IMG/VR virus record: IMGVR_UViG_3300033388_002430
Coordinates: 1,997-65,996 of that record
Reading direction: 5' to 3' (one strand)
Origin: a virus
Lineage: Duplodnaviria > Caudoviricetes
Length of the DNA: 64,000 nucleotides
Below, one piece after another: positions 1 through 64,000 of the stretch. Within the stretch, counting starts at the first letter, position 1. Every line of letters starts with the position of its first letter. The position numbers and the translations under genes were made by a program. Under the pieces are notes generated by a model. It was given only the letters and a program-made list of their open reading frames with translations, searched no databases and was not told where the DNA came from.

Positions 1-328
1 ATTTTTTCGGGGAAATAAGACTATCTATTTCATTGATTAAATCAATGCTTGCTTGTTCTGGTACAGGATCTGATCTGTCATCATAAGCACAGCCTGGAAA
101 ATATTTGGGATTGTCCCATAATTTATTCTTCATTCCGTATCCAGTCTCTAGCACTCTAAATACAATGCCCTCTGAAGTTTCAAACCATTGAATATCAATT
201 CCCTCTGGAGCAATAAGGTCTAGAGAATATTTATCAATACTTGCCGAAGTAATTTTTCGAATATATCGCACTTGTTTAGTAAAGTGTATTCTGTTTTTTG
301 ATCTGAATCCATAAAATACAATACTCAT
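1..328 (-). CDS. partial hypothetical protein (runs off window start)
   Basis: ATG at 328 with GGAG RBS; frame MSIVFYGFRSKN... stays open to position 1. Confidence 0.6.
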   Translation of the reverse strand, partial: MSIVFYGFRSKNRIHFTKQVRYIRKITSASIDKYSLDLIAPEGIDIQWFETSEGIVFRVLETGYGMKNKLWDNPKYFPGCAYDDRSDPVPEQASIDLINEIDSLISPKK

Positions 329-442
329 ATTATCTCCCCATCCACATCTTTCTATATCGTTTCCATCTCATAGGTATTAATCCTTTATCACGAGCTTTTA
401 TACAATACCAGATATAGTCGAACCAACAATTAATTAGACTAA

Positions 443-679
443 TCATTTACTCCTCTCAATAGTGATCCTAACCTTGATAACCTTTGATCTTGGAAAAGTC
501 CCCCTCGTTTTAGATAAAACATTCCTAGCCGCTCTTCTGGTGCAGAACAGAGCTATAGGGTGTCCTTCCATATGTGCTGGAATAGGGGTATATTCTTCAT
601 CAAACCACCAATAACGACCTATCAATCCATGCCCTTCTTTTGATTGTGTATCTATTGCCCATCCATAATATTCATTCAT
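443..679 (-). CDS. hypothetical protein
   Basis: ORF with ATGA overlap to upstream gene. Confidence 0.6.
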   Translation of the reverse strand: MNEYYGWAIDTQSKEGHGLIGRYWWFDEEYTPIPAHMEGHPIALFCTRRAARNVLSKTRGTFPRSKVIKVRITIERSK

Positions 680-1113
680 AACTTTTTAGTCTCCTCGTCT
701 GGATGCCAATTACAATCATCATTGTTACACCACCACATGCTTTCATAGTAGTCAAAGTCCATATCTTCACCACACTTCGGGCATTTCTTTTCTTCTGTTG
801 ATATAACAAATATATCATTTTCATACTCTTGTTTTATAACAAGATCTTTGGTGTTAATGTAAACCATACCCTCGTTTGGTGGAGTGGGGAGTTCTACTAG
901 CGGGTGTTCTTTCAACTGTCCACAATTATCACAGTCATACCAGCCCTTCACCCAAAACACTTCGGCTTGACATATAGGACAAAAATACTTCTCCCCCTCT
1001 TGTGCGGTGAGAGCTTCATCCATTCGGGCATATATTCTTACCGAGGTCTCGCTAGGAACTCTAAGGTCTATCAATGCTTTCTGCAACTCTTTCAGTATCG
1101 CTTGTGTGTTCAT
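676..1113 (-). CDS. mosaic Zn-ribbon protein, NTQAILKE family copy 1
   Basis: CxxC pairs; shares NTQAILKE / AQEGE / LPTPP.EG blocks with 7973..8317 and part of them with 63664..63873. Confidence 0.7.
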   Translation of the reverse strand: MNTQAILKELQKALIDLRVPSETSVRIYARMDEALTAQEGEKYFCPICQAEVFWVKGWYDCDNCGQLKEHPLVELPTPPNEGMVYINTKDLVIKQEYENDIFVISTEEKKCPKCGEDMDFDYYESMWWCNNDDCNWHPDEETKKL

Positions 1114-1610
1114 AATTTTCTAGCCTCCAGTACAAATTTTTCTAGTGTCATCCTGACCTCACCAACAGTGCCGTAAAATACAGATGATGGATTTGGACAT
1201 GCCATTACTTTACCTGAGAAATATGGTGTTTCTATGACTAATCCGGCTAGTTGCATCACAGAATGATCTGTAAAGAATTTGACCGTATCAGACCCTAGAA
1301 GTAATATCAATTCTTTATCCTTACCCAATTTTAGTAAACTTTCCAGTCCAGTGTTGAAACACTCCTCATTATCATTCTTCTCGTGTAACCACAGATTAGT
1401 AAGTAAAGCATTGTGCAGATTAAATCCTAACTTTCCAAGCTCTGTTTTCAATACTCTGCCGGATTTACCTACAAATGGTCTACCAACTTTCATCTCATCT
1501 TCCTCAGGCGATTCTCCAACTATCAATATGGAAGAATTAGGATTACCATAGGGCAATACCAGGTCTGTTCTTCCACAACTCTTGCAAGTAAAATCTTCAA
1601 CTGTTTTCAT
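1110..1610 (-). CDS. uracil-DNA glycosylase, family-4/SPO1-pol-associated type
   Basis: GESPxxxE-GRPFVGKSG motif; adjacent to PolA. Confidence 0.85.
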   Translation of the reverse strand: MKTVEDFTCKSCGRTDLVLPYGNPNSSILIVGESPEEDEMKVGRPFVGKSGRVLKTELGKLGFNLHNALLTNLWLHEKNDNEECFNTGLESLLKLGKDKELILLLGSDTVKFFTDHSVMQLAGLVIETPYFSGKVMACPNPSSVFYGTVGEVRMTLEKFVLEARKL

Positions 1611-3289
1611 TATTTACCTCCGCTCCAGTCTTGGCACACAACGACATGTGCAAAGAACCTCACACCTGGACACATCTTCTGAGCCACATCTTCCATAGTT
1701 CCTCGAATAAACTCAGCAATTTTATCAGCACAATGTTTAGGCACATCTGCAATGATTTCATCATGGATCTCAGCTACAACTCCGTACTCGCACAAATCAG
1801 TAGGCCAGTTCTTATGTATCTCTCCTAGAGATGCCTTTAGTTGATCTCCTGCACTTGATTGAATAGGAGCATTACGAGTATGTCTTTCCCTTTGATAGCT
1901 ATAAGAATTAAGATGAAATTTCCGACCTACTACGGATTCTACATAACCATGGATCAATTCTTGTTTAGATACCCAATTCTGAATATCAGGGAATAATTTG
2001 AAAAATGTGGCTAATCTTTCTTTAGCCTCTTTTACAGAAACGTTATATTTCTGAGCATATCCCTTAACAGATAATCCATATCCAGCGGCTAGAATAATTT
2101 CTTTAGCCTCATCTCTGAACGGATCACTTTTAGTAATCTCTTTGTCATACATTTTTTTCACAATTTCGATATAAATATCATTACCAGTATTACATATCTC
2201 AATCAAGTTCTTATCCTGAGATAGATATGCCATTATTCTAGGTTCTTGTGCGGAGTAATCAGCTACGACCAAAGAGTTTCCTTCTTTAGGAATAAAGCAC
2301 TCTCTAAATACTGGAGTACTTCTTACTGGAATGTTTTGACAATTCGGCTTACTAGATGATGTTCTTCCGGTACTTGCCCCAATTACATAATAGTCGGAAT
2401 GTACACATTCATCTTCTTCAATATATTTTTCTGCCCAATTTAGTCCATAGGTAGAGGATAATTTCTTCTTTTTTCTAAATTGTAATACTCGTTCTGCCAT
2501 ATCAGAGATATCACTGTCAGGATTTTTCTTTATGAGTTCTTCCAGAGCCTCTTCATTAGTAGATTTTATTCCTTTTACTCCTAATTCTACCAATTTCTCT
2601 TTGACCTGTTTAGGGCTTGCCGGATTAATCTCAAAGGTTTCTTTGTATTCCTGTGCAAGTCTTTCATTCTCCTCTGCCAATTCTTTCCACTTCTCCACAT
2701 CTACTCTAAATCCTTTGAAATCTTTGATTGCCCAGAGAGCGGGAAGATCTATTTCTTTCCAAACTTTGAAATCATTCTTATCCGCTATCTTTCTCTGCAC
2801 TTGACAAACTTTCAATGTGTAGTATGGATCTTTAGCACTATATTCTAATAACTCCGGTGTTAGTTCTGTAGCAGTTTCAAATCCTTCTCTGATCTCTTTT
2901 TCTAATAAAATATTTAGATGCCTACGAACCAGATCTGCTAAAGAAAAGTTAGTAAAGTATCCTCCATAGAGAATACGATCTATTAGCATGATATCCCATA
3001 TCTTAGTTTCTCTGCTAATCTCTGCCCATCTACTGAGATGTGCCAGATCAAATTTAGCATTCATCAATGCCCAGATACAATTATCAACTCTCTGAAGCAT
3101 AATAGGTACAATGTTTTCATCCGTAGTGATATAAACATCTTCCCCAATCGCTACCTGTAAAGATGCAAATGTTCCATTATCAGGTCTATGCAGTCTAGCC
3201 TTGTCCATTCCGAATAGTTCTGTGTCTACTCCTATCCAGGTATTATCCGGCTGTCTCGATGGAAGTTTATCTACATATATATTCATCAA
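1610..3289 (-). CDS. polA: family A DNA polymerase with 3'-5' exonuclease
   Basis: Exo motifs VDTE, NAKFD, YSAKD; motif A DYSAQEPR, motif B KEIILAAGYG, motif C IHDE. Confidence 0.95.
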   Translation of the reverse strand: MMNIYVDKLPSRQPDNTWIGVDTELFGMDKARLHRPDNGTFASLQVAIGEDVYITTDENIVPIMLQRVDNCIWALMNAKFDLAHLSRWAEISRETKIWDIMLIDRILYGGYFTNFSLADLVRRHLNILLEKEIREGFETATELTPELLEYSAKDPYYTLKVCQVQRKIADKNDFKVWKEIDLPALWAIKDFKGFRVDVEKWKELAEENERLAQEYKETFEINPASPKQVKEKLVELGVKGIKSTNEEALEELIKKNPDSDISDMAERVLQFRKKKKLSSTYGLNWAEKYIEEDECVHSDYYVIGASTGRTSSSKPNCQNIPVRSTPVFRECFIPKEGNSLVVADYSAQEPRIMAYLSQDKNLIEICNTGNDIYIEIVKKMYDKEITKSDPFRDEAKEIILAAGYGLSVKGYAQKYNVSVKEAKERLATFFKLFPDIQNWVSKQELIHGYVESVVGRKFHLNSYSYQRERHTRNAPIQSSAGDQLKASLGEIHKNWPTDLCEYGVVAEIHDEIIADVPKHCADKIAEFIRGTMEDVAQKMCPGVRFFAHVVVCQDWSGGK

Positions 3290-3498
3290 AATATTACTCC
3301 TCCTACTGGTATTATTGGTCTCAGAGTTTCCGTATCATAGTTTGGGAATGAGACGCAACCAACAAAACCACTACCCCTCATAATCATATGTTCATACTCT
3401 TCTGGAACCCGTAAATCAGGTAATGGTGCACCACATTGAGTACAAATTGTTTTTTCAGCATCTATATGGCACGTGCAATATCTACATTGAATTTTCAT
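3286..3498 (-). CDS. small Zn-ribbon protein
   Basis: CxxC...CxxCG. Confidence 0.6.
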   Translation of the reverse strand: MKIQCRYCTCHIDAEKTICTQCGAPLPDLRVPEEYEHMIMRGSGFVGCVSFPNYDTETLRPIIPVGGVIF

Positions 3499-4027
3499 CT
3501 TTCCATTCCTCTATTTTTCTTTGTATAAGATCAGAAAATAAAATATCGAAATAAAATTTACCTTTCCACCAACCAATAGAAAAGAGGGTTGCTGGATAAT
3601 TATTAGCGTTCTTGAATTGACATAATACCAGATTAATATAATCCCATCGTTTTTTATATCCTGTATCTGGCATGAATTCTATATCTAATAGATGAAATTT
3701 TCCGTACATATTTATCCTCTCCCCTGTGCTAGGTCTTGTTCTTCTCTCCATTCATCTAAGGCATCCTCACTCATCTGTTGTTGTAATAACCACCATTCTG
3801 CACATTGATCTACATAGTGACAATTCGTACAATCATCTGGATCACAGTTCCAAGGTCTTAATTCTTCAGATACATTAATTTTATTCATCATCTTCTCCGA
3901 AACAAACTGTATTCCATTTACAATTATCACATCCCTCAGCATTATTACAAAGAATTTTATCTTCTGCTGGAATATCCTCATATGTCATATCTTCTAATTC
4001 TAAATAATCAAACATTTTTATTCTCCT

Positions 4028-4648
4028 CTAATTTCCATAATGATCTGCCCAATCATTCATATCTTTGAACTTAGAATAATACTTTTTCCCATTAATTACA
4101 ATGTGCCATTTGTCCCATTCCGCAAAATCCCCGGATAGCTCAGACCCTCCGGCTCGTTTATCACTGGAAAGAATATTCCAGACTTCTACTGTTCCACCAA
4201 AAGGCTCAAGTCCTGCATTGTCCAGAATAGAGAATCCATGTTCGAGAATATCTAAACATTTCTCTTTAGTATATTTTCCCTCCAGATACATCATATATAA
4301 TCTTCCACTATGAATAAAGTTATGACAGGAAGAGCAGAGAGCAACTATTTCTTCTAACTTTGCTTCACCTTTCTTATAATTAATCTGGTAACTCTCATGC
4401 CCTTCTAACCATTGATGATACTTAGCATTATATTTAGATATTCCACATGCCCAACAGCAGTAATTATTCTTAGCATATGCTTCTTTACGCTTCTCATTCC
4501 ACCATGCCTGACCTAACACTGTGCGTGGATTCATCCCATGTAAAGGCTTAGGAATATTAGGATGGGTCAGATAGATAGGATTAGAAAATTTTGCCTCTTC
4601 TATTTTTCCCTTTACCATTCCCTTTCTAGGTGGTGTATATTCACTCAT
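4028..4648 (-). CDS. HNH-type endonuclease
   Basis: CxxC...LEGHE...ALCxxCHxxIH. Confidence 0.7.
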   Translation of the reverse strand: MSEYTPPRKGMVKGKIEEAKFSNPIYLTHPNIPKPLHGMNPRTVLGQAWWNEKRKEAYAKNNYCCWACGISKYNAKYHQWLEGHESYQINYKKGEAKLEEIVALCSSCHNFIHSGRLYMMYLEGKYTKEKCLDILEHGFSILDNAGLEPFGGTVEVWNILSSDKRAGGSELSGDFAEWDKWHIVINGKKYYSKFKDMNDWADHYGN

Positions 4649-5019
4649 TTATATTTTCCTTTTTCCAGTGTTTTACCAGTTTGAATCCTGCCTTGATAGT
4701 ATAATCTTCACAGAACTCTTTTTTACACGCCTCACATCTATATAGTGTACAGTATTCATTCCAATCAATCGGTGTCAATTTCCATGTTTCTTTACATTTA
4801 GGACATTGGATATGATACATTATTCTGCCTTTACTGTATCCACTATTATTGGAGTAAGTCCAAATGGTTTCATGTCACTGTACTCACCGTCTAACCATGC
4901 TACTAGATTATTTTTAGTTATTCCTGCCACCCGCTGTAATGTTTCCTCTTCAGATTCATTATTAGTATCAAATATAATCTGAGTATTAAGACATATAGTA
5001 ATTTTTACATTTTTAGTTT

Positions 5020-6180
5020 TCATGAATATTTCCTTAAACTAAACCATTCTCCTTTATCCGTATGTTTCCAACCATGATTACCTATAAATGGTATCTGAAT
5101 CGCACCAGGACTATCATCTCTATGCTGTCTAAATCCTCCTCTACAGAGCCACGCAATTAGGTATGCTCTGTTCTCAACAATTGGAATCTTATCAGCGTCT
5201 TGCTCAGCAAAATAATCAATGCTCGGATTATATACCATCAGAACCATGTAGGCCAATGCCTCGGCTAATCTTGTCCATCTCAAATGATGTGGTCTAGGAA
5301 TACCACCTCTATAACCTGAGAGTTGTGCTAGGAGAACAATAGGTACTCTCAATTTCTTAGCTCCCATCATCAGTATTCGATACATATCACTTACCGTAGA
5401 TACACTTGTTTCACCCTCAATAATTAGATCTGCAAAGTCAATAATAACAAGTCCTAAATCTTCCATTCGAGCAGAGTCGGATATAATCTTGGAAGCCGTC
5501 ATTGGTTCATCACATATCTCAATTCTAGTTTCCTCATCCTCAGTAAGATTAATTACTTCCCGTGACCGTGCGGCGTATTGACTAGCTAACATCTCAATGC
5601 TATAAACCGCCACTTTCTCGTCTTTATGCTCTCTCGCATATGTTCCTGCTAAAGCCCCTGCAAATGATGTCTTACCGCTCTTAGGAGCACCCCCTACTAC
5701 GACTAGACCTACTTCGGGTAATCCACCTAAATGATTATCTATCGGAGCAAATCCACACTTCTTATAAGGAATCTCATCTCCCTCTACCTGATTTAAAGGA
5801 GTTCTAAGAGATGCTCCATATTCAGCCTTACCCACAATTTCTACTATTTCTGACAAATCTACAAATTCTCCCTGCTGTAATTTTCTGGAATATTTCTCTA
5901 ATCTGTGTCCTGCCTGATATAGACTTGCAGATTTCTCTAATATTCCTAACCAATCCGCTTTAGATGTTAATCCGTTCAAACTCTTAGCCGCATCCATAGC
6001 TGATTGTACAGGATGTATTCCTATCTGCTCCACCAGATCGCCCACAGTTTTCTCCGACTTTAATCCTTTAATAATTTCATCATATGGTGGTATCAATAGC
6101 TCTGATCTAATTGCGTTAAGCGATAACTCTTTGTTGATTGCTAATCCTGCTACTATCTCGCTGGAACTTGACCAATCCAT
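5020..6180 (-). CDS. DnaB/RecA-fold replicative helicase
   Basis: Walker A GAPKSGKT, Walker B VIIDF, LAQL motif; next to primase. Confidence 0.85.
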   Translation of the reverse strand: MDWSSSSEIVAGLAINKELSLNAIRSELLIPPYDEIIKGLKSEKTVGDLVEQIGIHPVQSAMDAAKSLNGLTSKADWLGILEKSASLYQAGHRLEKYSRKLQQGEFVDLSEIVEIVGKAEYGASLRTPLNQVEGDEIPYKKCGFAPIDNHLGGLPEVGLVVVGGAPKSGKTSFAGALAGTYAREHKDEKVAVYSIEMLASQYAARSREVINLTEDEETRIEICDEPMTASKIISDSARMEDLGLVIIDFADLIIEGETSVSTVSDMYRILMMGAKKLRVPIVLLAQLSGYRGGIPRPHHLRWTRLAEALAYMVLMVYNPSIDYFAEQDADKIPIVENRAYLIAWLCRGGFRQHRDDSPGAIQIPFIGNHGWKHTDKGEWFSLRKYS

Positions 6181-6997
6181 GTACTATCTCCTCTAACACT
6201 TCTGGTTTCTTTGTTAATAAATCATTTACATCTTTAGTTCCATAGGGATATTTTATTTTTATGACATTTCCTCTCCAACCTAATTGAGATGCTAATAGAT
6301 GTGCTTCTTTTTCTTCTCCGCTGTCAGGAATAATATAAATATTCTTTCTAATCGTATCAAACAATCTGGGATCTAATCTTTTACCTAATGTACCTGTTAC
6401 TGCTGGAACTCCTAATACTTCTAAAGACACCGCATCAATCGTTCCATACACCACAATCAAGTTCCTAGAATTTATTACTCTATCCCAATTTGGACAATAC
6501 AGCATCATTTCTTGTCCGGCAGGTGTCATATATCTCAATCTACTTTTATTGTCACTATTCCTAGCAACCGCCCCTATAATTTTTCCTTTAGGTGACAACA
6601 CTGGAAAGATATACCAACCGTCTCTATATCCTATCATTAGTCGAGAAATAATCTTCTCTGTTATTCCCCGCCTGTGCAGATAGGTACCCATTTGTGGGTG
6701 TTTCCATAATAGCTTAGACGAGGCAGACCATAATTCATAAAGACTAAATTCTTGTAACCATTTAGTAAATGGATTTTTACTGTAGGCTAGCTTAGGTCTT
6801 GGTCTAAAACTCTTATCTAATTTTCTGAGTAATTGTTCTGGCTTTCCTTGCTTACCACAGCTCTTACAGATATAGAAATCTTCGTAAACAAAGAAGGATG
6901 GATTTTGGTCATCGTGAAACGGACAAAGAGATACTATATAATTTCCATATCTGGATACTCGATCTAATCTATCCGCTATTCTATCTAGATAACTCAT
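6116..6997 (-). CDS. DNA primase (CHC2 Zn finger + TOPRIM)
   Basis: CPFHDD..PSF..CKSC zinc finger; G.IDA, PDSG, KDVND TOPRIM-like motifs. Confidence 0.9.
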   Translation of the reverse strand: MSYLDRIADRLDRVSRYGNYIVSLCPFHDDQNPSFFVYEDFYICKSCGKQGKPEQLLRKLDKSFRPRPKLAYSKNPFTKWLQEFSLYELWSASSKLLWKHPQMGTYLHRRGITEKIISRLMIGYRDGWYIFPVLSPKGKIIGAVARNSDNKSRLRYMTPAGQEMMLYCPNWDRVINSRNLIVVYGTIDAVSLEVLGVPAVTGTLGKRLDPRLFDTIRKNIYIIPDSGEEKEAHLLASQLGWRGNVIKIKYPYGTKDVNDLLTKKPEVLEEIVHGLVKFQRDSSRISNQQRVIA

Positions 6998-7331
6998 TCT
7001 TTATCTCCGCTAAACTCTTTCCATTTTCTAATTTATTCATGATTTTCAGTATCCTATTCCCATTAGTAACACTGTGTCTGGCTAGTCCAAACACGTCTAC
7101 ATCTTCCCATCGTTCCCAGAGAGGCAAATATTTTCTATATTTCTTTTCCAGGTACTCAGCAAACTTTACCGCCTCATCTCGATCACTGAATGGAGAATTT
7201 ATTAGCTTTCTTCCAGTCCTGACCTTATAGATAAAAGCATCTTGAGTAACTGCTAAATATTCACCTACTCTGATACCCTCTCTTTTCTGTGAACAATTCG
7301 TAGTTTTATCGGTGAAAGTTATTATCTGCAT
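6981..7331 (-). CDS. hypothetical protein
   Basis: ORF overlapping primase start. Confidence 0.55.
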   Translation of the reverse strand: MQIITFTDKTTNCSQKREGIRVGEYLAVTQDAFIYKVRTGRKLINSPFSDRDEAVKFAEYLEKKYRKYLPLWERWEDVDVFGLARHSVTNGNRILKIMNKLENGKSLAEIKNELSR

Positions 7332-7871
7332 TGTTTATCATATCATATTTTTATTTTTGTAAGATTAAAAATTACTCTTAATTAACGATTAATTTAGTAA
7401 TCTCATAGATCATATAGATACCAAATACAATTACTAAGAACCATCTATAATCTAATTTACTATTCATCTCTTTTCTCCTGTCTCATCTCTTCTTCCCAAT
7501 ATTGATATTCCTGTTCTCGTTCTAATATCTGATGTTCTTCTCTTTCCTGTTGTTGTCTCTCATATCTCTCAGAATCTTCATCATAATATCTCTGTTTTTC
7601 CACGATCCGGCTGATACAATTAGCCGGAAGTACACAATAGGGTCTGGGAAAATCTGGCCTACTCATTCTTCTTTCTCCTCTAATCGCTTATCCCAGACCT
7701 CATCACTAATAGGCTCTCCATACACATCGTAAAGACTGCGTGTTGTTAGTTCTTTTTCTTCTCTTTCAAGGTTGTCAAGCCTCTCTTGCTTGAGTATATC
7801 GTTGCCAAGCGACATCATTCACCCTCCTCTGCTAGTTCCCAAGGATATCCATTCGCCTGATAATCGTGGTC

Positions 7872-7973
7872 TTATTCACATTCATCAGCTTCTTCTTCTA
7901 AAAAATAGGCTGCGCCACAATAGTTGCAATGATACATTTGTTCTTCAAATTCTCCCTCTTTTGTGTAAACCAT
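7872..7973 (-). CDS. 33-aa CxxC micro-protein (MVYTKEGEFEEQMYHCNYCGAAYFLEEEADECE), not in ORF track
   Basis: ATG overlaps stop of 7973..8317; its MVY start matches the internal MVY of 676..1113 at DNA level. Confidence 0.55.
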   Translation of the reverse strand: MVYTKEGEFEEQMYHCNYCGAAYFLEEEADECE

Positions 7974-8317
7974 CATTCACCTTCCTTTGGCGGAGTAGGG
8001 AGAGCGTATTCCCATAATTTCGGATTTCTCAAAAAGCGTTCTAGCTTCCGAATGGGCACGATATACGAATTAGTGTATTCTTTTTCTGGTTCACAAGCTC
8101 TTTCAACCCATTCAACTAATTGGTCAATCGTTACGGTTACGTCTGACGGTTTTGCCAGCCTATGCCTTCTACCGTCAGTTCCGTAAATAAACCAATCATC
8201 CGCTTCATCTTCCCCCTCTTGTGCGGCGAGGAGTTGTTCAAGTTCACTTGTTGTTACGGGAGTCATACGTGACCTTGAAAGTTTGTCGTACTCTTTTAGT
8301 ATCGCTTGTGTGTTCAT
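7973..8317 (-). CDS. mosaic protein, NTQAILKE family copy 2
   Basis: Shared DNA and protein blocks with 676..1113. Confidence 0.7.
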   Translation of the reverse strand: MNTQAILKEYDKLSRSRMTPVTTSELEQLLAAQEGEDEADDWFIYGTDGRRHRLAKPSDVTVTIDQLVEWVERACEPEKEYTNSYIVPIRKLERFLRNPKLWEYALPTPPKEGE

Positions 8318-8360
8318 TTGTTTTCCTTATTGCGCTTTGTATTACGTCATAGTCATATTG

Positions 8361-8524
8361 CGTCACTAATCCATGAAAAGTGACGAATAGTTGGGTGGGC
8401 TGACTTGGGAATCAGCCTGTACTCTTCAGCATCGCATAATGGACGAAGTAGCACCCAACTAAGGAAACATGAATACTGTGCGTACTAATAAACTGAGAAG
8501 AGTATAAATAACACAGTACTCATG
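8361..8524. ncRNA. structured intergenic element (three adjacent stem structures), probable RNA on the minus strand
   Basis: Stems 8361-8367/8379-8385; 8388-8397/8452-8461 enclosing 8398-8403/8412-8417; 8468-8480/8512-8524. Confidence 0.45.
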
Positions 8525-8536
8525 ATATCCACTAAA

Positions 8537-9331
8537 TTATTCCCACTCCACACCATCATCTTCTTTCTTTTCCTGACTAACTTCAATAGTTTCATCTCCT
8601 TCTTCCCAAGGAGGATCTCCACTATCATCATAATCAGCGATCTCATAGATATGCTCTACCCAGCCACCGTTGAGAACAACGTTAAATTCTCGCTCTAATC
8701 GAAGGATACGGCTCTCAAGTTCTGGTAGAATATTCTCCGACCATTCAATAGCTCCAAATTCCCAAAGACCCGTAGCGTCACAAAAATCAGATAACATATC
8801 ACAATGCTTACTATTACCAGGAGCAGATGAAAAACCTGTTTCCTTCTTACCTCTTTCCTCAGTAAAAATGGGCACAAATTTCTCATAGAACAGTTGCATA
8901 GGAAGTGTTAGACCTAAGACCTCTAGAGGAGATACGATTTCTAACACAGAGTTGAATTTAATCATGTCACCAAATTTACCCGTATAAACTTTAGGCTTTG
9001 GATCTTCTCCCTCTGGTGAGGGGAAATTCTTTACTTTCACTCTGAATTGACCATTAGCCGGATGGAAATTAACAATTGCTGATTTGTCAGGACTAAAACT
9101 GATCTGAAATTCTCCCTCATATTTCTGTTTGATCACCTGCATAATATCTTCCTGCACACCTTCTGCACAGTCAGATAATTTTACAGTTTCAGATTTTGTT
9201 TCACCATCATCTGTTTTCCAGAGAACCTTAATTCCTTTTTCTTCCTTGATCTTGACAGGGCGGAATTTTCCATTTACTCGTTCTCCAACTTCAAATTCAC
9301 TCTTATTTCTTGGGGGTAAATATTTACTCAT
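8537..9331 (-). CDS. putative ssDNA-binding protein
   Basis: Very acidic C-terminal tail ending in an aromatic residue (DDSGDPPW...GVEWE); upstream of primase/helicase. Confidence 0.55.
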   Translation of the reverse strand: MSKYLPPRNKSEFEVGERVNGKFRPVKIKEEKGIKVLWKTDDGETKSETVKLSDCAEGVQEDIMQVIKQKYEGEFQISFSPDKSAIVNFHPANGQFRVKVKNFPSPEGEDPKPKVYTGKFGDMIKFNSVLEIVSPLEVLGLTLPMQLFYEKFVPIFTEERGKKETGFSSAPGNSKHCDMLSDFCDATGLWEFGAIEWSENILPELESRILRLEREFNVVLNGGWVEHIYEIADYDDSGDPPWEEGDETIEVSQEKKEDDGVEWE

Positions 9332-18658: not shown

Positions 18659-19387
18659 TTATTCCTCAACAGATCTGACAGAGAATAGCGGAGTATTATA
18701 CGATCCTTTTTCTACTACGCACCATTTCTCTATGGTTTGCAGATTTCTACAAATACATTGTAGGGCTGATCTTTCATGAGCATAATGTAATGATCCCAAA
18801 GCATCTATGATTTGTTTCCCAGAACTCTTAGGATTCTTAGCAAGATACTCCTTGATTTCCAGCATTGATTGTTTATATCGAGTCCAATATCCCCCACCAC
18901 GTGTCCCCGCCACTCCATAGTTATCGACCAATCCTGTATTTATCAAATCGAATAATCGTTTCTTAGTACTTATCCAATGAGATTGAGTATTATTCAGATC
19001 ATACCTAACACTGTGTTTTACAAATATTGATGAGTATTCTCCTAAGTAATGGGTCTGCACATGTCCAGATTTAGAAACAGTCATACTACTAATATTCATC
19101 TCCTTACCCAAATAGCCTATCCAGAACTGATGATTATTACTAGCACTATCCGATTCAACCCTGGGAAAAGCTATGGTACGGAAATCCACATCCCATTTAT
19201 AGGCTTGCCTAATCACATTTAGAGATAGAGTCGTTTTTAATTCTATGATCCATATCAAATCTTTTAATACACAAACAATATCAGCTACTTTACCGCCTCT
19301 CGGAGATAACTCTTGATATATCTTCCAGTCAGGTCTATTCTTTTCCAGCCATTCAATTATTGTTTTTCCCAGATCAGTCTCTTTCAT
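18659..19387 (-). CDS. PD-(D/E)xK nuclease-like protein
   Basis: YQE...ADIV...IIELK. Confidence 0.6.
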   Translation of the reverse strand: MKETDLGKTIIEWLEKNRPDWKIYQELSPRGGKVADIVCVLKDLIWIIELKTTLSLNVIRQAYKWDVDFRTIAFPRVESDSASNNHQFWIGYLGKEMNISSMTVSKSGHVQTHYLGEYSSIFVKHSVRYDLNNTQSHWISTKKRLFDLINTGLVDNYGVAGTRGGGYWTRYKQSMLEIKEYLAKNPKSSGKQIIDALGSLHYAHERSALQCICRNLQTIEKWCVVEKGSYNTPLFSVRSVEE

Positions 19388-21650: not shown

Positions 21651-21911
21651 TTATAAAGAACCAAACCTAAACCAAATTATTTCCGTCTTATTACTCGGAT
21701 GACTATCTATATGAATAAATTTGAAATCTTCCCAAGAATTATAAATACCCAGACTAGAAACACCGTGTTTATCAATATCTGTTCTCCAACATACAATTAC
21801 CTGTCCAGTATGAAAAACAATACCATCTAGGACTCTGCCAGTTCCACTAACTCCAGATTCATCCTGATTTCTCACCACTGTAAATAGTCTGGGTTCTTTA
21901 CTCATAACCAT
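21651..21911 (-). CDS. conserved phage hypothetical protein
   Basis: RxxDESGVSGTGxV.xG motif common in phages. Confidence 0.6.
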   Translation of the reverse strand: MVMSKEPRLFTVVRNQDESGVSGTGRVLDGIVFHTGQVIVCWRTDIDKHGVSSLGIYNSWEDFKFIHIDSHPSNKTEIIWFRFGSL

Positions 21912-22927
21912 TCTGGATGTTCCATCATCCAGCTCACCACCTTCTCAATCGTTCTTTTCAAATTAAATGGTGCTGTCCATCCAAGATGTGCAATCTTTGT
22001 TCCATCAAGACCATAATGAAGATCATGACCTGGTCTAAAACTATGGAAATCTTCATATTGAAGGTTGAGATCCTTCTCTTTACCCATCACTTTTGCAATT
22101 AATATGGCTAATTTATCTACTGGCATCCATTCTCCAGTCACGTTATACGCCTCACCAATCTTTCCATTCTCCAGTAAGAAAACAATAGCACTTGCATGGT
22201 TTTGAGCATGGAGCCAACACCGACTCGAAACATCCACAACTACATCATCTTCTATCTTACAATGAACAATAACTGGCTCATTAGCAAGAATTTTCTTTAC
22301 AACCATGGGGAAGAATTTCTCACTGTCCTGCCTCTCACCAATATTATTCATCGTTCTGCTAATTATTACTGGTAAATCATAAGTATTATGATAGGCAGTA
22401 CAAAAATCCTCTCCCGCCGCCTTACTCGCAGAGTACGGATTACTTGGCTTATGCGCTTCTCCCTCTTTATGTAAATCACCATCATATGCTGGCCCATATA
22501 CCTCGTCAGTCGAAACATAAATTATTTTTTCTAGATCATGCCCATTTGATAATGTTTTTGCAAGCTCTAAAATATTTACTGTTCCTAATACATTAGATTC
22601 TATAAATGGATAAGGATCTGTAATTGATCTATCTACATGAGACTCCGCACCCATATGAATTATATAATTTATTTTTCCAAATAATCTGAGTAGTCCAAAT
22701 ACTTTTCCAACATCAAATTTTGCTCGGAAATCATGATAATAAAATTTTACTCTACCGCTAGAATAAGCATCTGGAAATATATCAACATCCATTAATCTAT
22801 TTAGATTTCCAGCATAAGAAAGTCTGTCCAGAATAATAATATTCCAGTCGGTATTTTCCAAGATATATTCAGTCGTGTGATGCCCAATAAATCCAGCACC
22901 ACCAGTTAATAAAACAGTTTTATTCAT
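21902..22927 (-). CDS. rmlB: dTDP-glucose 4,6-dehydratase
   Basis: TGGAGFIG, AESHVDRSI, STDEVYG, YSASK, RPGHD. Confidence 0.92.
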   Translation of the reverse strand: MNKTVLLTGGAGFIGHHTTEYILENTDWNIIILDRLSYAGNLNRLMDVDIFPDAYSSGRVKFYYHDFRAKFDVGKVFGLLRLFGKINYIIHMGAESHVDRSITDPYPFIESNVLGTVNILELAKTLSNGHDLEKIIYVSTDEVYGPAYDGDLHKEGEAHKPSNPYSASKAAGEDFCTAYHNTYDLPVIISRTMNNIGERQDSEKFFPMVVKKILANEPVIVHCKIEDDVVVDVSSRCWLHAQNHASAIVFLLENGKIGEAYNVTGEWMPVDKLAILIAKVMGKEKDLNLQYEDFHSFRPGHDLHYGLDGTKIAHLGWTAPFNLKRTIEKVVSWMMEHPEWL

Positions 22928-31433: not shown

Positions 31434-32443
31434 ATGAATTTAGAAGATTATGAATATAAGAAATCTGGTCGAGGATATAAAGTCAAGATTGCTTGCTTGA
31501 GTTGTGGGGAAGAGATGTGGCAACCCTGGAACGTTGTAAAAGATGGTAGGGGTAAGTATTGTAATTCTACTTGTTATAACGAGCATAGGCATCATACAGA
31601 AGAATTGGATCAATATGAACAAAGAATATCTCCATCTCGCCACATAGAAGTAAAAATTAATTGTGAGTGGTGTGGAGCAGAGACTTGGGTAAAATGGGTC
31701 AGACGAAAGAAGGGTCAGGGAAGATTTTGTAATCAAGAATGTTCTCAGGAATATGCTAGAAATGAGGGGAAAAAGACTTGGGGAAAGGAAAATGCTGTCT
31801 TTTGTTGGAATAAATCTAGTCAGCATTGGGGAGCTTTCTGGAAGGATGAAAATGGTATTCAACGAAGCACTACAAAAGCTCACTGGTTATGGGAGAGGGA
31901 TAAAAGAGAAATCCCAGACGGGTATTGGATTACATATATAGATGAGAACCGAGAAAATTGTGTTTTGGAGAATTTGAAAGCAGTTCCAAAAGGGGAAATA
32001 ATGAGTAAAGCTCTTATGGGACATAAACATTCTGAAGAAGCAAAGAAGAAAATGTCAGAATCTCATATAGGGAAAACCCTTTCTGAAGATCATAAGCATA
32101 AAATTAGTGCATCATTAGTAAAACGATGGAAATCTGGAGAGTTTGAATCTATTCATTGTGGAGAAAATAGTCAATATTGGAGAGGTGGCATAGATCAAGA
32201 ATATCCCCCAGAATTTAATGATAAATTAAAGCAAAAAATAAAAGAAAGAGATGAATATAAATGCAGGATTTGTTCTGATGGTGATGCTGATTAGATGTTC
32301 ATCATATAGATGGAGAAAAAACTCATAATAATTTAAATAATTTGCTTGTTTTATGTATTCACTGTCATCACAAAGTCCACGGAATAAAAGATAATCCAGA
32401 CCCAGTTATTTCTATGCTTCGTTCCTTGCTTTATTGGAATTAG
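31434..32443 (+). pseudogene. NUMOD3/HNH homing endonuclease with frameshifted C-terminal HNH domain
   Basis: ORF stops at 32294; LDVHHIDG...NNL..LCIHCH.KVH continues in the -1 frame 32291-32443. Confidence 0.8.
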
Positions 32444-32730: not shown

Positions 32731-32909
32731 TGATGTAGTTTTATGCAAACCGTTTCTACGCTGGATGGAAAGTCCATATTATCAAAAAACGGGTCTTTTT
32801 TAGTGTATTATAAGTGTTGAATAAAGACATATTTGGTGTATATAACCTAAATAGGTTACACAAGTGTAAAGACTTGTAAGTAATAAATACAAGTATTTAG
32901 AGTTGTTCC

Positions 32910-33731: not shown

Positions 33732-34048
33732 GTAAACACGACTACAATAGTGATTTGACGGGAAATATTATTAAGAAGGTAAAATCAGAAATTGATAAGA
33801 GGGTTAGTGGGGGGAATGTTGATGGTGATACTGATCTTTGGGTACTCCTACTAATCTCTGATATTCATAGTCGTGTCCATGGAATAGAAAAAAATCCTGC
33901 CCTTATTCTAGGAACATGGTTCAGGGATTATCCAAGTCTATCTTGGATAGTATTTGGTATAACATCTTTGATATCAATTGGAAGTATTTTAGCTATAATA
34001 GTTACGTTTATGAATAAGGTAGGATTAGCAGTAATCGTTCAACCATAG
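33728..34048 (+). CDS. membrane protein with C-terminal TM helix
   Basis: Hydrophobic C-terminal segment. Confidence 0.55.
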   Translation: MSKHDYNSDLTGNIIKKVKSEIDKRVSGGNVDGDTDLWVLLLISDIHSRVHGIEKNPALILGTWFRDYPSLSWIVFGITSLISIGSILAIIVTFMNKVGLAVIVQP

Positions 34049-35384: not shown

Positions 35385-35406
35385 GATACATGTGAAGGAG
35401 GATAGG

Positions 35407-36249
35407 ATGAAGAGAGCAGTAACAGGATATGATGGAAATATAGGTTCTGAATTTGTTCAGCGTGGTTATATTCCTATTAAGTCCAACATTTTAGATAAAG
35501 ACACAGTGTTTCAGGAAATTCAAAATATCAATCCTGATGTTATTGTTCACTGCGCCGCATTAACAGATGTTGGGTATTGTGAAGAAAATGATCGTAAAGC
35601 GTTTGAAACTAATGTTCGTGGAATGTTAAATGTTTTGGATAGTTTTAGTGGGCTATTTGTTTATCCCTCTACCTGTCATGTCTTTTCAGGTACGCATCCG
35701 TGGGCATATAATGAGCGTCATACACCATCCCCTGTAAATGCTTATGGACTAACAAAATATATGGCAGAGGGACTTGTTCAATCCGGCATTAGACATGCTA
35801 AAGGTCTTATTATTAGAACTTCTAGGGTGTTTACAAAGAAAGATGTGTTAGATATAGTAAAGAAATTGGAAGATGGGGAAAGTATTGAGGTAACTGATCT
35901 TATTACTCGTTCCTTTATATATGTGCCTCATTTTGTGAGTAGTGTGGAAGATACTATTCAGAAAAAGATTGGTGGTAAATTACCAGAAGATTTGATTCAT
36001 ATCGCCGGAAATTATGTTGAATCTTATTATGGTTTTTATTGCCAAATCGCTAGAATATTCGGATTTGATTCAGATCTGATTGTTCCACGAAGAACTAAAC
36101 TAGAAAATGAGTTCCCTCGACCCTTCAAAGGTGGATTAAATGTAAATATGGCGGAGGTATATGGCATAAAGCTATATGCTAGTCATCAAGGATTACAGGA
36201 GATACGAGATGAATATGAAATTCTCAATAATCATCACAACTCTGAATAA
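35407..36249 (+). CDS. rmlD: dTDP-4-dehydrorhamnose reductase-like SDR
   Basis: TGxxGxIG, HCAALTDV..CE, ST..VF.G, YGLTK, RP. Confidence 0.85.
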   Translation: MKRAVTGYDGNIGSEFVQRGYIPIKSNILDKDTVFQEIQNINPDVIVHCAALTDVGYCEENDRKAFETNVRGMLNVLDSFSGLFVYPSTCHVFSGTHPWAYNERHTPSPVNAYGLTKYMAEGLVQSGIRHAKGLIIRTSRVFTKKDVLDIVKKLEDGESIEVTDLITRSFIYVPHFVSSVEDTIQKKIGGKLPEDLIHIAGNYVESYYGFYCQIARIFGFDSDLIVPRRTKLENEFPRPFKGGLNVNMAEVYGIKLYASHQGLQEIRDEYEILNNHHNSE

Positions 36250-36907
36250 GTACCAATTTATTCAGCAAAGACTTTTTGAGATTTATAAATATGTTCCGGC
36301 AGAATATATTGAAGAAGTCATTATTACTAATGATGATAGAACCTCTAAAGAATTAATTGATGTTGTGGATAAACATATTCAAATTAATGATGAATATCCC
36401 ATCATTCTTTTAGATCATCCACATTCCACATCATTCTCTGCTAATGTGAATCGGGGTGTAGATTATTCTATGGGAGAACGAATTATAATTACTCAGGATG
36501 ATGTTAGAGTTTGTGGGAATTTCATGTTAAGTCTTGAGGAAACCGTAAGGAATAGTTGGAATAGTATTATTGGAAGAGTTCTGGATTATGATACGGGTTG
36601 GAATAATATCCATGGTTGGATTATTCCTTATATAGAGGGATGGTTCATTGTTTGTCCACGGGGGATGTGGGATAATATTGGTGGGATGGACGAGGAAATA
36701 AAGCCGTATGATGCGGAAGATATTGAGTGGGCTATTCGTGTAAAACAGAACGGCTATGGTTTTGTGAATTACAGCAGTATTTATCTCCAACATATACGAG
36801 GTCAAACAATTCAGATGGATGAGCATAGACGTAAGATTACTGAAAAGAATATTGAATATATCAGGAATAAGTGGTCAAGAGAAGAATTAGGTAGGATTTA
36901 TGGATAA
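36176..36907 (+). CDS. glycosyltransferase family 2
   Basis: SIIITT, N.G, QDD, GGMDE...ED. Confidence 0.85.
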   Translation: MLVIKDYRRYEMNMKFSIIITTLNKYQFIQQRLFEIYKYVPAEYIEEVIITNDDRTSKELIDVVDKHIQINDEYPIILLDHPHSTSFSANVNRGVDYSMGERIIITQDDVRVCGNFMLSLEETVRNSWNSIIGRVLDYDTGWNNIHGWIIPYIEGWFIVCPRGMWDNIGGMDEEIKPYDAEDIEWAIRVKQNGYGFVNYSSIYLQHIRGQTIQMDEHRRKITEKNIEYIRNKWSREELGRIYG

Positions 36908-37814
36908 GAAAGTTGTAATGTTAAGTCAGATTAATTATCCTGTTAGTATTGGGAGATATTTTGAGAGGGCATTGGAACGTAGAGAGGATGTTGAGCTTTA
37001 CACTATTGGGCCATATACCGGAACATGGATACCCTGGAATGGGGGAATGAATCTACCAGAGAAATATGCTAAAGCCCCCACAATTCCATTGGATAGACAA
37101 GTTCCTAGTGGTATACAAGCTCCAAAAGGATTAATAGAGGAAAAGATTGGAAAACCTATTGATATTTGGATCAGTGTAGATGCTGGATTTTATTTCAATG
37201 ATATACCAGCAGAGGTAACCTGTTTGGTACAGACAGATCCTCACGTTCTGGATTATAATCATCAACGTACTACTCATGATTATTCTTTTTGTATGCAGAA
37301 ATGTTATGCTAATCCGATAGATATTTATTTGCCTTATGCCGTAGATCAGACTGTGCATTATCCTATTGAAGATATGAAGAAAGAATATGACGTTGTGATG
37401 ATCGGGTTGCAGTATCAGAACAGGACAGAATTAGCAAATATTCTTAAATCAGAGGGTATAAGGGTTTACTACTCTATTGGAGAATCTTTTGATGAATATC
37501 GAGAAATTTATAATAAGAGTAGAGTAGGAGTTTCTTGGTCTAGTAAGGATGATTTGATTGCCAGAGTATTTGAGCTTATGGGAATGAAAATTCCTCTGGT
37601 TACAAATAATGTTCCTGATCTTCCTTTACATTTCGATGAGGGTGCTCATTATCTAGGTTTTGATAATATTTATGAGGCTGTGGAGCGTATTCAACGAATA
37701 TTATATAATCCAGAAAAGTATGTGCAGATGCGAGATCAGGCGTATGATTTGGTAATTGCTGAACATACTTACGATCATAGAATACAGCAGATATTTGATA
37801 CAATAGGAGCATAG
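36900..37814 (+). CDS. GT-B glycosyltransferase (CgeB/Glyco_trans_1_2-like)
   Basis: YLPYA.D, RVFELMG, HTYDHR. Confidence 0.8.
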   Translation: MDKKVVMLSQINYPVSIGRYFERALERREDVELYTIGPYTGTWIPWNGGMNLPEKYAKAPTIPLDRQVPSGIQAPKGLIEEKIGKPIDIWISVDAGFYFNDIPAEVTCLVQTDPHVLDYNHQRTTHDYSFCMQKCYANPIDIYLPYAVDQTVHYPIEDMKKEYDVVMIGLQYQNRTELANILKSEGIRVYYSIGESFDEYREIYNKSRVGVSWSSKDDLIARVFELMGMKIPLVTNNVPDLPLHFDEGAHYLGFDNIYEAVERIQRILYNPEKYVQMRDQAYDLVIAEHTYDHRIQQIFDTIGA

Positions 37815-38410
37815 AATGAATGCTGAAAATGAAAATATTGATCCGATGAGCATTGAAGCGGTTCAACAGGGAGTTCTTACTACAATAAGTTATATCTTTG
37901 AGCGATATAAGATGTTGAATTGTTTATTAGGATATATCATTGAAAATGATTACGATGGTAGATTTATCATGTCACTGGATGAATGGGATAAGAATATTAT
38001 GGAGCATAACTTCACAACTGGTTGGATAGTAAATAATGAAGATGAAAATATTCATATCGTTGGTAAGGAGAATGGATGACTGATATAAAAGATATTTCGT
38101 TTTCAATAATCAAACAGCATGGAGATCCTAATAAAGCTGTGACTGTGGATGGATTTACAATCACTAGACAGGAAAAGTTATTTATTCCTGAATATCAAAA
38201 ATTTGTTATGTGTGCTCCATATAGCTCTCATTTTATTTATCTAGACCCATCTGGAAAGCCTGGAAGATGGTTTGCTATGTGTACGTGTGGTGCGCCGAGT
38301 GTCATTACTGGATATAGTGGATATAAACAAGATGCTTCTAGTAATGAGGGGGCTATGCTTGTTTGTTTATATCATGCTCAACATGGACATCATCAGAATG
38401 AGGGAAGTAA

Positions 38411-43557: not shown

Positions 43558-43565
43558 GGTAATAA

Positions 43566-45442: not shown

Positions 45443-45443
45443 T

Positions 45444-63873: not shown

Positions 63874-64000
63874 GTAAAGCCTCCAAGAATGGCTCGAAGA
63901 ATTTATCATCACCTTCTTTAGCCTTTTCAACAATGGTAGAAATTCTGCCATAGCTCTCATCACCAATCTTTACAGTAGTTCCACGACTGATAGGACATTT

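Follow-up and report, generated by a model that had tools for sequence, protein, structure and literature searches.

Modular theory is attributed to Botstein and colleagues, and Clark and colleagues reportedly extended it to lambdoid phages. In Gram-positive surface proteins, the 'recer' interdomain sequences of de Chateau and Bjorck are said to have been proposed to promote intron-less module shuffling. Two models of phage mosaicism are described in PMC3029335: homologous exchange at short conserved boundaries, and illegitimate recombination followed by selection. According to the same source, support for the boundary-sequence model is rare, since the joints usually lack conserved sequences. 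Other comparable systems are the gp38 adhesins of T-even phages, with hypervariable segments between conserved glycine-rich motifs (PMC3157838), the mosaic Ea22 proteins of Lambda and Stx phages, for which DUF551 is described as a portable domain (PMC10834534), and PeSLs, the mobile regulatory cassettes of T4-type phages (PMC2839356, PMC4122927).

The analyzed window is a 64,000-nt stretch of DNA from an uncultured marine phage, and three of its small early or replication-region genes (A, B and C) carry short in-frame linkers around exchangeable segments. The best reading, to which we assign a probability of about 0.68, is homologous exchange at these linkers, a known form of phage mosaicism seen here in a new family. 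As in modular theory, short nucleotide-conserved sequences flank the modules, identity shifts sharply and general recombination enzymes would suffice. Unlike in modular theory, two of the three joints are intragenic, in frame and at the ends of a 36-aa domain, and the modules are 20–70 codons long instead of being genes or operons. The recer sequences are likewise in-frame, nucleotide-conserved and interdomain, but they belong to bacterial surface proteins and not to phage genes. With gp38, as described in the source cited, the family shares conserved in-frame motifs, which in gp38 are thought to form a structural core, and variable segments between them that are shuffled among phages. However, there is no sequence relationship, and gp38 is an adhesin of the virion for which host range is the known selective driver, whereas the present family comprises small early-region proteins in which whole domains, not loops alone, are swapped. 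The Ea22 proteins, in the published description, also have a constant N-terminal part and unrelated C-terminal domains including DUF551, and are products of early accessory genes. They differ in that A, B and C gave no Ead/Ea22 or DUF551 match in Pfam, their long coiled coil is replaced here by a short hairpin as the N-terminal module, and the phages are of a marine lytic type and not lambdoid prophages. PeSLs, in the accounts cited, are short conserved gene-boundary sequences with expression signals, through which modules are shuffled; linker 3 is comparable in the signals that it carries. However, PeSLs are intergenic promoter/stem-loop units, whereas linker 3 is coding and contains neither promoter nor hairpin, and linkers 1 and 2 have no counterpart in the PeSLs described there.

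Genes A, B and C and their linkers

The features of the window considered here are as follows:

676–1113 (−): gene A, 145 aa; N-terminal hairpin, zinc-ribbon cargo, LPTPPNEG tail and an in-frame fused MVY/zinc-ribbon module
1086–1110 (−): linker 1 of A (NTQAILKE), start of helix 1
992–1011 (−): linker 2 of A (LTAQEGE), end of helix 2
892–954 (−): zinc-ribbon cargo of A; compared with a G002 gene, 85.7% nucleotide identity (63 nt) and 24/31 aa
858–891 (−): linker 3 of A (LPTPPNEG plus ATGGTTTACA), fused form; the copy of B is 5 nt longer
7973–8317 (−): gene B, 114 aa; N-terminal hairpin module, 69-aa cargo of unknown fold and LPTPPKEGE tail
8290–8314 (−): linker 1 of B, with a single silent change (CTA for CTG)
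8211–8230 (−): linker 2 of B; the block in common with L016 has its left edge here
8003–8238 (−): cargo cassette of B; 93.6% nucleotide identity over 236 nt to metagenome contig L016, with both flanks unrelated
7964–8002 (−): linker 3 of B; DUF551-type tail LPTPPKEGE, Shine-Dalgarno-like AAGGAAGG, stop and overlapping start of the micro-gene
7872–7976 (−): MVY micro-gene, 34 aa, with a Cys-x2-Cys motif; translationally coupled to B
63664–63873 (−): gene C, 69 aa; N-terminal hairpin module and zinc-ribbon cargo, tail absent; overlapped by neighbours at both ends
63843–63867 (−): linker 1 of C
63761–63780 (−): linker 2 of C (LTTQEVG), degenerate
63866–64000 (−): 3' end of a RecA/UvsX-like recombinase gene that runs across the record end; its stop overlaps the start of C
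63288–63677 (−): RusA-like Holliday-junction resolvase gene, overlapping the end of C

All three linkers were found where a sequence-only reading of the window had placed them, at a frequency far above chance. Linker 1 (25 nt) occurs three times in the window, exactly in A and C and with one mismatch in B; none of 100 shuffles matched it, and there were no extra copies elsewhere across the full 65,996-nt record. For linker 2, present in A and B, the expected count was 0, and the degenerate copy in C is 80% identical. Linker 3, together with TGTAAACCAT, was confirmed in A and B. The cores of linkers 1 and 2 are confined to genes of the family and lie on the sense strand throughout, both in this sequence and in four other contigs. 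Linkers 1 and 2 form the two ends of a predicted helical hairpin of about 36 aa, while linker 3 is a DUF551 C-terminal motif joined to the stop and to the ribosome-binding site and start that serve the gene behind it. The claim that the MVY part is reached by read-through in copy A, whereas copy B stops and restarts, was also borne out: B contains 5 extra bases after GGT, which produce a stop and an overlapping restart, so that there is no read-through in B.

The start of gene A overlaps the stop of a UDG-like gene (ATGA), and gene C sits between the RecA/UvsX-like and RusA-like genes. Pfam scans of 97 proteins (58, 7 and 32) revealed no reverse transcriptase, integrase, invertase or serine/tyrosine recombinase family. 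The statement that the window encodes no reverse transcriptase or invertase thus agrees with the scans, but it passes over the RecA/UvsX-like recombinase and the RusA-like resolvases, of which there are two in all. No tRNA or Rfam family was found in the window, and the RNA folds of four start regions were no better than those of shuffled sequences (z from +1.2 to −0.3).

The protein family and its predicted structure

The products of genes A, B and C are part of a family of small phage proteins that is rare and has no name. It has 16 members, namely 3 in the window, 8 on four other contigs and 5 available as proteins only; DNA comparisons cover 11 genes. Two of the four other contigs were found using nucleotide-specific patterns, and one linker copy in each is therefore biased. 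Contig G001 was located via the codon-agnostic pattern EQILTAQE; it was the sole family member among 4 matches and carries the frozen codons described below, while other codons are used in the three unrelated matches. Codon-agnostic patterns for linker 1 (viral contigs) and for ILTAQEG[DE] gave 12 and 7 stretches, respectively, with no family members among them, and a combined linker-1/linker-2 pattern yielded nothing beyond three contigs already found. No related loci were found in viral contigs using the DNA polymerase or the family alignment, nor in genome contigs using B and P0002. In the phage collection, window positions 1–9000 had no nucleotide match and gene A had no tblastn match; the polymerase showed less than 30% identity among the matches listed and less than 60% across all 4,908 records matched. 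Word-based protein searches with A and C returned self-matches only. When G001 was searched with a profile of the short N-module, genes that are present there were missed; the method was too insensitive for that model. The profile-search matches P0010, P0012 and P0013 are repeat proteins and were dropped as spurious.

AlphaFold modeling of the N-terminal module of B with an 11-sequence alignment predicted helices at residues 3–16 and 23–34 (pLDDT 87.2); in this single hairpin, helix 1 begins with linker 1 and helix 2 closes with linker 2. The model of A obtained without an alignment was unusable (pLDDT 37.7). A Foldseek search with the hairpin model gave no match at E ≤ 0.001, and a search of the ESM Atlas with B gave no lead (best score 0.86, TM ≤ 0.42). 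Pfam and PHROGs produced weak zinc-ribbon matches for A and none for B and C. DUF551 (PF04448; gathering score 22 bits) was absent from A, B, C and the micro-gene in Pfam even at E ≤ 1, as was the Ead_Ea22 signature from the matches of A, B and C at the same threshold. DUF551 was matched in the family proteins P0003 (52.5 bits, residues 36–105) and G2a (53.4 bits), and in P0003 the model extends to ..PLPTPPK. Genes A and B carry the tail LPTPP(N/K)EG, as in the C-terminal ..PLP.PP.. motif of DUF551, on non-DUF551 cargos; the tail is thus DUF551-derived, and A and B are not DUF551 members.

Mosaic segments and frozen codons

The segments between the linkers had been described as lacking visible similarity, and no significant similarity was detected among the three N-terminal interiors (shuffle p 0.05–0.84) or ten cargo pairs (p 0.04–0.94). 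The intervening segments do not align as ordinary diverged paralogs would, and module combinations are not fixed among relatives. When the 16 family proteins were segmented at the linkers and a local score of at least 45 was used as the cut-off, nine segment pairs were retained and every other pair fell below it. The N-terminal interior of B matches that of P0003 (19/20 aa), while the cargo of B matches L016 (64/70 aa) and the cargo of P0003 matches G2a (54/63). The interior of G1a matches P0006 (23/23), the cargo of A matches the G002 gene listed above, which lacks the N-terminal module, and two Cys-rich module genes of G002 match each other (45/52). The three remaining pairs are weaker (12/23, 13/28 and 14/24). 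Segments are thus near-identical or else unrelated, and neighbouring segments pair with different partners. Note that linker 1 of P0003 deviates (MNMKAILKE) despite the close match of its interior to that of B.

The same picture was obtained at the nucleotide level. Identity between the B locus and L016 is at noise level (about 35–45%) upstream of position ~8245, reaches 90–100% from ~8236 to 8026 and returns to noise below ~8010, i.e., it steps up at linker 2 and down at linker 3. When the whole 66-kb record was compared by BLASTN with four other contigs (about 120 kb in total), genes A, B and C accounted for 10 of the 12 matches (E ≤ 0.05), and core or shared proteins of the compared phages were just 21–58% identical. 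The genes therefore show conserved short junction sequences, abrupt changes of identity (B and L016, the cargo of A and G002) and varied module combinations, as in mosaic boundaries. One marine sequencing run, the only one with part of the window, contains 9% of the sampled words, and its contigs match the linkers and then diverge into unlike sequence on both sides. Three such joints, matched at 80% likeness, have short sides (22 and 27 letters) or low likeness; they are most likely other family members in other phages and not recombinants of this phage. Where this run covers the window, none of its contigs links copies A, B and C with each other.

Linkers 1 and 2 retain the same, often rare, codons across the compared phages. 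The linker 1 core CAA GCG ATA is identical at 26/26 codons compared, a count that excludes reference copy A and one bait copy, and GCG accounts for 3–22% of Ala codons in these contigs. In linker 2, CTC encodes 13/13 Leu residues (usage 2–8%), ACC 13/13 Thr and GAG 13/13 Glu. Given the same peptide, the probability of the same 8 linker-1 codons is 3e-5 for a second copy in this genome. Silent sites of linker 3, in turn, vary freely. Within linkers 1 and 2 the freezing is uneven: the third positions of Leu (linker 1) and of Ala and Gln (linker 2) vary, but the silent sites next to them are invariant (Fisher p = 0.016 and 1.9e-4, respectively, with copies that are not independent). The flanks of linker 1 are alike at 12.1 of 18 nt within a genome versus 11.0 between genomes, a difference that is not significant (p = 0.11), so there is no sign of intragenomic gene conversion.

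Probable exchange at the linkers and its alternatives

Three other explanations were weighed against homologous exchange. If A, B and C were ordinary paralogs diverged by point mutation, with the linkers as conserved protein motifs of a shared domain, joint conservation of linkers 1 and 2 would be expected at the protein level, since they end one predicted hairpin; linker 3 does evolve in this manner. However, rare codons are retained in every copy, neighbouring segments have discordant partners and are near-identical or unrelated, the identity profile against L016 is step-like, and the cargos have different folds (zinc ribbons, DUF551 and an unknown one). This explanation is already contradicted and is considered very unlikely. 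Programmed diversification by a diversity-generating retroelement, by shufflon-type inversion or by a dedicated linker-specific recombinase appears the least probable of all, even though several copies with identical short sequences occur per genome and copy C is embedded among recombination genes. Neither a retroelement nor a shufflon agrees with the Pfam results given above; moreover, the copies differ by replacement of whole segments and not by adenine-specific substitutions, and the linkers are all direct. A crossover between A and B would also delete the polymerase, helicase and primase genes.

The linker nucleotides might instead act in cis as a DNA or mRNA element, the modules having been joined by illegitimate recombination and kept by selection. 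Candidate roles are a translation-initiation element just past the start codon for linker 1 and a putative binding site for a phage protein. In 11 of 12 copies, linker 1 comes immediately after the start codon; the start regions are unstructured, and P0003 retains the interior of B but not linker 1. Silent sites that vary alternate with others that never do, as would those of a recognition motif, and a sequence-specific cis function accounts for this uneven pattern no less well than homogenisation by recombination does. Nevertheless, linker 2 is internal and just as frozen, additional internal copies of linkers 1 and 2 occur in G3c, P0006, G1a, G1b and G3a, and the boundaries of identity fall at the linkers. 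Since neither an Rfam match nor a stable fold was found, no factor is known, and the five sequences have no cores outside the family genes, a cis element remains unlikely, though it is less so than the two explanations above.

Homologous exchange is therefore preferred. In this reading, each protein has a two-helix N-terminal hairpin with constant ends (linker 1, ..QAIL.., and linker 2, ..LTAQE..) and a variable middle, followed by an exchangeable cargo (zinc ribbon, DUF551 or unknown fold) and frequently by the DUF551-type tail LPTPPKEGE, whose codons double as ribosome-binding site, stop and start for the following gene. New combinations most likely arise when co-infecting phages, or paralogs, exchange sequence by homologous recombination or gene conversion. 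Crossovers would fall inside the short, nucleotide-identical, in-frame linkers, so every product would be in frame with an intact hairpin. We infer that the crossovers are homologous and are performed by the RecA/UvsX-like and RusA-like proteins of the phage or by host recombination enzymes. More speculatively, the hairpin could be a shared docking or oligomerisation module, with the cargo providing specificity. The sequence-only reading had proposed sub-gene module shuffling at in-frame microhomologies as a diversification mechanism; the mosaic evidence supports the shuffling, and the pattern resembles classical mosaicism between phages at conserved boundary sequences, not a programmed diversifier. 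It is conceivable, but improbable, that linkers 1 and 2 are more than remnants of homology and are under selection as cis sites for a dedicated system of cassette exchange, by which marine phages reassort early accessory cargo at high frequency during co-infection. The RecA/UvsX-like and RusA-like enzymes of the phage, or the family protein itself, would then act at these sites, and the family proteins may be counter-defence or host-takeover proteins. Such a system, if real, would be a population-level generator of diversity needing neither reverse transcriptase nor invertase.

These three small early genes, built of interchangeable pieces, are a clear new example of the swapping of gene parts in phages. 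The joints are visible, in frame and intragenic, and two of the three linkers are frozen even at silent codon positions in phages with no other nucleotide similarity, so the choice between the two models of phage mosaicism becomes testable. The results also define a family of small marine-phage proteins, encoded in replication and recombination regions, that combine a constant helical hairpin with a swappable cargo, and they show that the DUF551 tail also serves as a portable gene end with translation signals.

Genome setting and the three mosaic genes

The source IMG/VR virus record comprises 65,996 nt and has a 114-nt terminal direct repeat, so the window, which covers positions 1997-65996 of it, represents nearly the whole genome; its GC content is 36%. 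A run of minus-strand genes extends from ~23,000 down to 1 and continues over the record end to ~61,000. It contains a UDG-like gene, genes for a family-A DNA polymerase, a DnaB-like helicase, a DnaG-like primase and an HNH endonuclease, two RusA-like resolvase genes, an endolysin-like gene (61262-62473) and many small open reading frames. On the plus strand are terminase and structural genes as well as a sugar-modifying enzyme cluster. Nothing close to the window was found in the phage collection, with zero nucleotide matches for 1-9000; the DNA polymerase identity was <30% among the matches listed and <60% across all 4,908 records matched. One marine metagenome run contained 9% of the region's sampled words.

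Some other features of the genome were recorded. The sugar-modifying cluster (35392-46220, plus strand) encodes an RmlD-like reductase, several GT1 and GT2 glycosyltransferases, a sulfotransferase and a methyltransferase; with the GDP-mannose-dehydratase-like gene of the early region (21902-22927, minus strand) added, the glycan toolkit is unusually large for a phage of 66 kb. Three HNH-endonuclease-like genes were found (4028-4648, minus strand; 31434-32294 and 39406-40101, plus strand), one of which is located between the polymerase and helicase genes; the gene at 39406-40101 showed 39% identity to a protein of contig G002. A contig of the marine run omits 212 bases of the window, 3282-3493 (joint 3281 to 3494, side 69), corresponding to a 70-aa zinc-ribbon gene (3286-3498), which some relative apparently lacks.

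The genes under study are as follows:

676-1113, minus strand: gene A
7872-7976, minus strand: micro-gene of 34 aa (MVY reading frame)
7973-8317, minus strand: gene B
63664-63873, minus strand: gene C

The sequence-only reading had described these genes as short conserved linkers flanking unrelated modules, and its placement of every linker was borne out. Linker 1 (25 nt) is present in three copies with 0, 1 and 0 mismatches, and no match was obtained in 100 shuffles. Linker 2 is present in two exact copies and in an 80% copy in C, and linker 3 plus the following ATGGTTTACA was found in both A and B. The segments between the linkers, namely the interior of the N-terminal module (N-interior, between linkers 1 and 2) and the cargo (between linkers 2 and 3), indeed showed no significant similarity (shuffle p values: N-interiors, 0.05-0.84; ten cargo pairs, 0.04-0.94).

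Note that the 219-nt intergenic stretch upstream of B (8318-8536, minus strand) has a very stable predicted RNA fold (-68.7 kcal/mol, z=-5.8; matched by 0/200 shuffles), consisting of a long hairpin and then a multi-branched part. No tRNA was found in it, and the sole Rfam match was noise (E=0.19).

Family members and module combinations

Word-based protein searches with B revealed only two relatives, P0002 and P0003, and those with A and C revealed none. An exhaustive profile search with the N-module against 1.84 billion representatives (E<=0.001) returned ten proteins: A, B, five new real members (P0006, P0007, P0008, P0009 and P0011) and three repeat proteins, which were discarded. All clusters looked up (7/7) were singletons, and thus the family is rare. 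Family DNA was available from the metagenome contig bearing P0002 (L016), G001 (two tandem genes, found via a codon-agnostic pattern for EQILTAQE), G002 (two genes) and G003 (three tandem genes); a combined linker-1/linker-2 pattern gave no additional contig across the 2.9 million contigs of the collection. Pfam revealed no domain above noise in the family proteins except P0003 and the G002 gene G2a. In L016 (540-640), a terminator-like hairpin and a near-consensus sigma-70-type promoter (TTGACT, 17 nt, TAGAAT) are located ahead of the P0002 gene, the neighbours of which have a higher GC content (0.49); this cassette may occupy a different kind of element.

Sixteen proteins were cut at the linkers and all segments were compared. 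Nine pairs reached the cut-off and every other pair was below it.

Segment pairs with a local score of at least 45
B and P0003, N-interior: 19/20 identical
G1a and P0006, N-interior: 23/23 identical
G3c and P0011, N-interior: 12/23 identical
B and L016, cargo: 64/70 identical
G2a and P0003, DUF551 cargo: 54/63 identical
A and a G002 gene without the N-module, Zn-ribbon cargo: 24/31 identical
G2b and P0006, cargo: 14/24 identical
G2b and P0009, cargo: 13/28 identical
Two G002 genes with a Cys-rich module, whole genes: 45/52 identical

The partners of the segments were discordant. For B, the interior comes from the lineage of P0003 and the cargo from that of L016, while P0003 itself has its cargo from the lineage of G2a. 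Gene start and linker-2 variant are common to G2a and G2b, G2b has a cargo type in common with P0006, and one interior is shared by P0006 and G1a. Linker types always follow the same order (linker 1, then the interior, linker 2, the cargo and linker 3), and units can be repeated: G1a, G1b and G3a each have a second linker 2, G3c has a second linker 1, and P0006 contains two complete N-modules after a zinc ribbon.

The Cys-rich module (KCVWTRCDD..CCFCGK, 45/52 aa) is common to the genes at 1296-1664 (plus strand) and 18692-19003 (minus strand) of contig L067 (G002). It is preceded by the linker-2-like ..LTAYEGE in one of them and by ..SVREGE in the other, and the second gene also has the zinc-ribbon cargo of A without the N-module.

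The boundaries of similarity were also visible in the DNA. Between the B locus and L016, identity in 30-column windows was at noise level (~35-45%) upstream of ~8245, 90-100% from ~8236 to 8026, and at noise level again below ~8010; BLASTN gave a block of 93.6% over 236 nt (8003-8238). The block is thus delimited by linker 2 (3' edge) and linker 3 (5' edge). When the whole record was compared with ~120 kb of the four other contigs, 10 of the 12 matches at E<=0.05 were located in A, B or C; the phage proteins common to the window and these contigs showed only 21-58% identity. Outside the family genes, a 19/19-nt match was found between 32738-32756 and G001 36337-36355 (E ~0.01-0.05).

Structure and codon conservation of the linkers

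AlphaFold modeling of the first 36 residues of B with an 11-sequence family alignment led to a helix (3-16), a loop and a second helix (23-34) with a mean pLDDT of 87.2. In this model, linker 1 corresponds to the start of helix 1, and linker 2 to the end of helix 2, so the two linkers are predicted to be the two ends of a single small helical hairpin, the far end of which is variable in sequence and length.

Linker 3 differs in nature from linkers 1 and 2. The Pfam DUF551 model spans from just past linker 2 to ..PLPTPPK in P0003 and G2a, which identifies LPTPP as the DUF551 C-terminal motif; the same tail is found on the non-DUF551 cargos of A and B. Behind the tail, the codons (AAG GAA GGT GAA TGA TG and its variants) provide a Shine-Dalgarno-like sequence, a stop and, overlapping the stop, the start of the following gene, a different one in every case. 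Five additional bases in B after GGT, relative to A, create this stop and overlapping restart, so that B terminates at ..LPTPPKEGE and the MVY frame is separate, whereas in A the tail and the MVY frame are joined in frame, as had been read from the sequence. Of seven genes that have the tail and for which DNA was available, five (B, L016, G1b, G2a and G2b) stop directly behind it, and the proteins P0003 and P0006 likewise end there; A and G1a continue past it. For this reason, A looks like the derived, fused form.

The core of linker 1, CAA GCG ATA, was the same in 26/26 codons compared, a count that excludes the reference copy, A, and the one copy that served as bait. GCG accounts for just 3-22% of Ala codons in the contigs compared.

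Codons at the linker cores (all copies)
Linker 1 Gln: CAA 11/11
Linker 1 Ala: GCG 10/10
Linker 1 Ile: ATA 12/12
Linker 1 Leu: CTG 9, CTA 2, CTT 1
Linker 2 Leu: CTC 13/13 (usage 2-8%)
Linker 2 Thr: ACC 13/13
Linker 2 Glu: GAG 13/13
Linker 2 Ala: GCA 6, GCC 6
Linker 2 Gln: CAA 10, CAG 2

Amino acids change freely in the codons adjoining the cores, and other codons were used in unrelated proteins with EQILTAQ[DE] (3/3 matches) or ILTAQEG[DE] (7/7 matches). The p values from the codon comparisons (3e-5; 0.016 and 1.9e-4) are indicative only, because the copies share ancestry. In five sequences, the cores were found exclusively in family genes and always on the sense strand. The silent sites of linker 3 vary (CCC/CCT/CCA, ACT/ACC, CCA/CCG/CCC) as in an ordinary conserved peptide.

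A similar patch was observed elsewhere. The initial part of a 59-aa zinc-ribbon gene (4641-4820, minus strand) includes 20 bases encoding QCPKCKET (4789-4808) that are 20/20 identical to G001 33941-33960, within a small zinc-ribbon gene that is otherwise unrelated; the same kind of freezing may be at work in a different small-gene family.

Origin of the mosaic

The discordant partners, the all-or-nothing similarity of segments and the boundaries at linkers support the earlier proposal of module shuffling by recombination at in-frame linkers. Together with the nucleotide identity of linkers 1 and 2, they make homologous exchange within the linkers the most likely explanation: crossover or conversion would have occurred repeatedly between co-infecting phages. 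The linkers are in frame and code for both ends of the hairpin and for the end of the gene, so each product would be a whole protein. A crossover between copies of one genome would delete essential genes, and exchange must therefore have taken place between genomes or via conversion. Genes for recombination are located nearby: the stop of a RecA/UvsX-like gene (Pfam RecA 43.3 bits, cut-off 27; phrog_97 E=7e-21) overlaps the start of C, a RusA-like gene overlaps its end, and weak recombinase homologues (24-25% identity) are present on G001 and G003 a few kb from the family genes. No recombinant was seen among the marine-run contigs; at the joints 1011 to 1087 and 8002 to 8291, the sides measure 22 and 27 letters with 80% likeness, and these joints most likely derive from other family members. 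Within-genome similarity was not raised in the linker flanks (p=0.11).

A sequence-specific cis role of the linkers fits the codon data as well, as frozen and free silent sites are interleaved in them; linker 1, located directly behind the start codon, may also act in translation, although RNA structure was not predicted there. As for the proteins, it may be guessed by analogy with Ea22 (PMC10834534) that the hairpin is a shared docking or oligomerisation module with variable cargo.

'Recer' sequences are one comparison case for the linkers. In the consulted parts of the literature, the closest concept to homologous exchange within linkers is exchange at short conserved boundary sequences, described there as seldom demonstrable (PMC3029335). 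The nearest sub-genic case is the gp38 adhesin, with conserved motifs alternating with hypervariable segments (PMC3157838), and PeSL cassettes are an analogue of linker 3 at gene boundaries (PMC2839356, PMC4122927). One feature, namely two in-frame linkers frozen at the nucleotide level, stands out as unexplained, and the system is best regarded as an unusually clean new case of known phage mosaicism.
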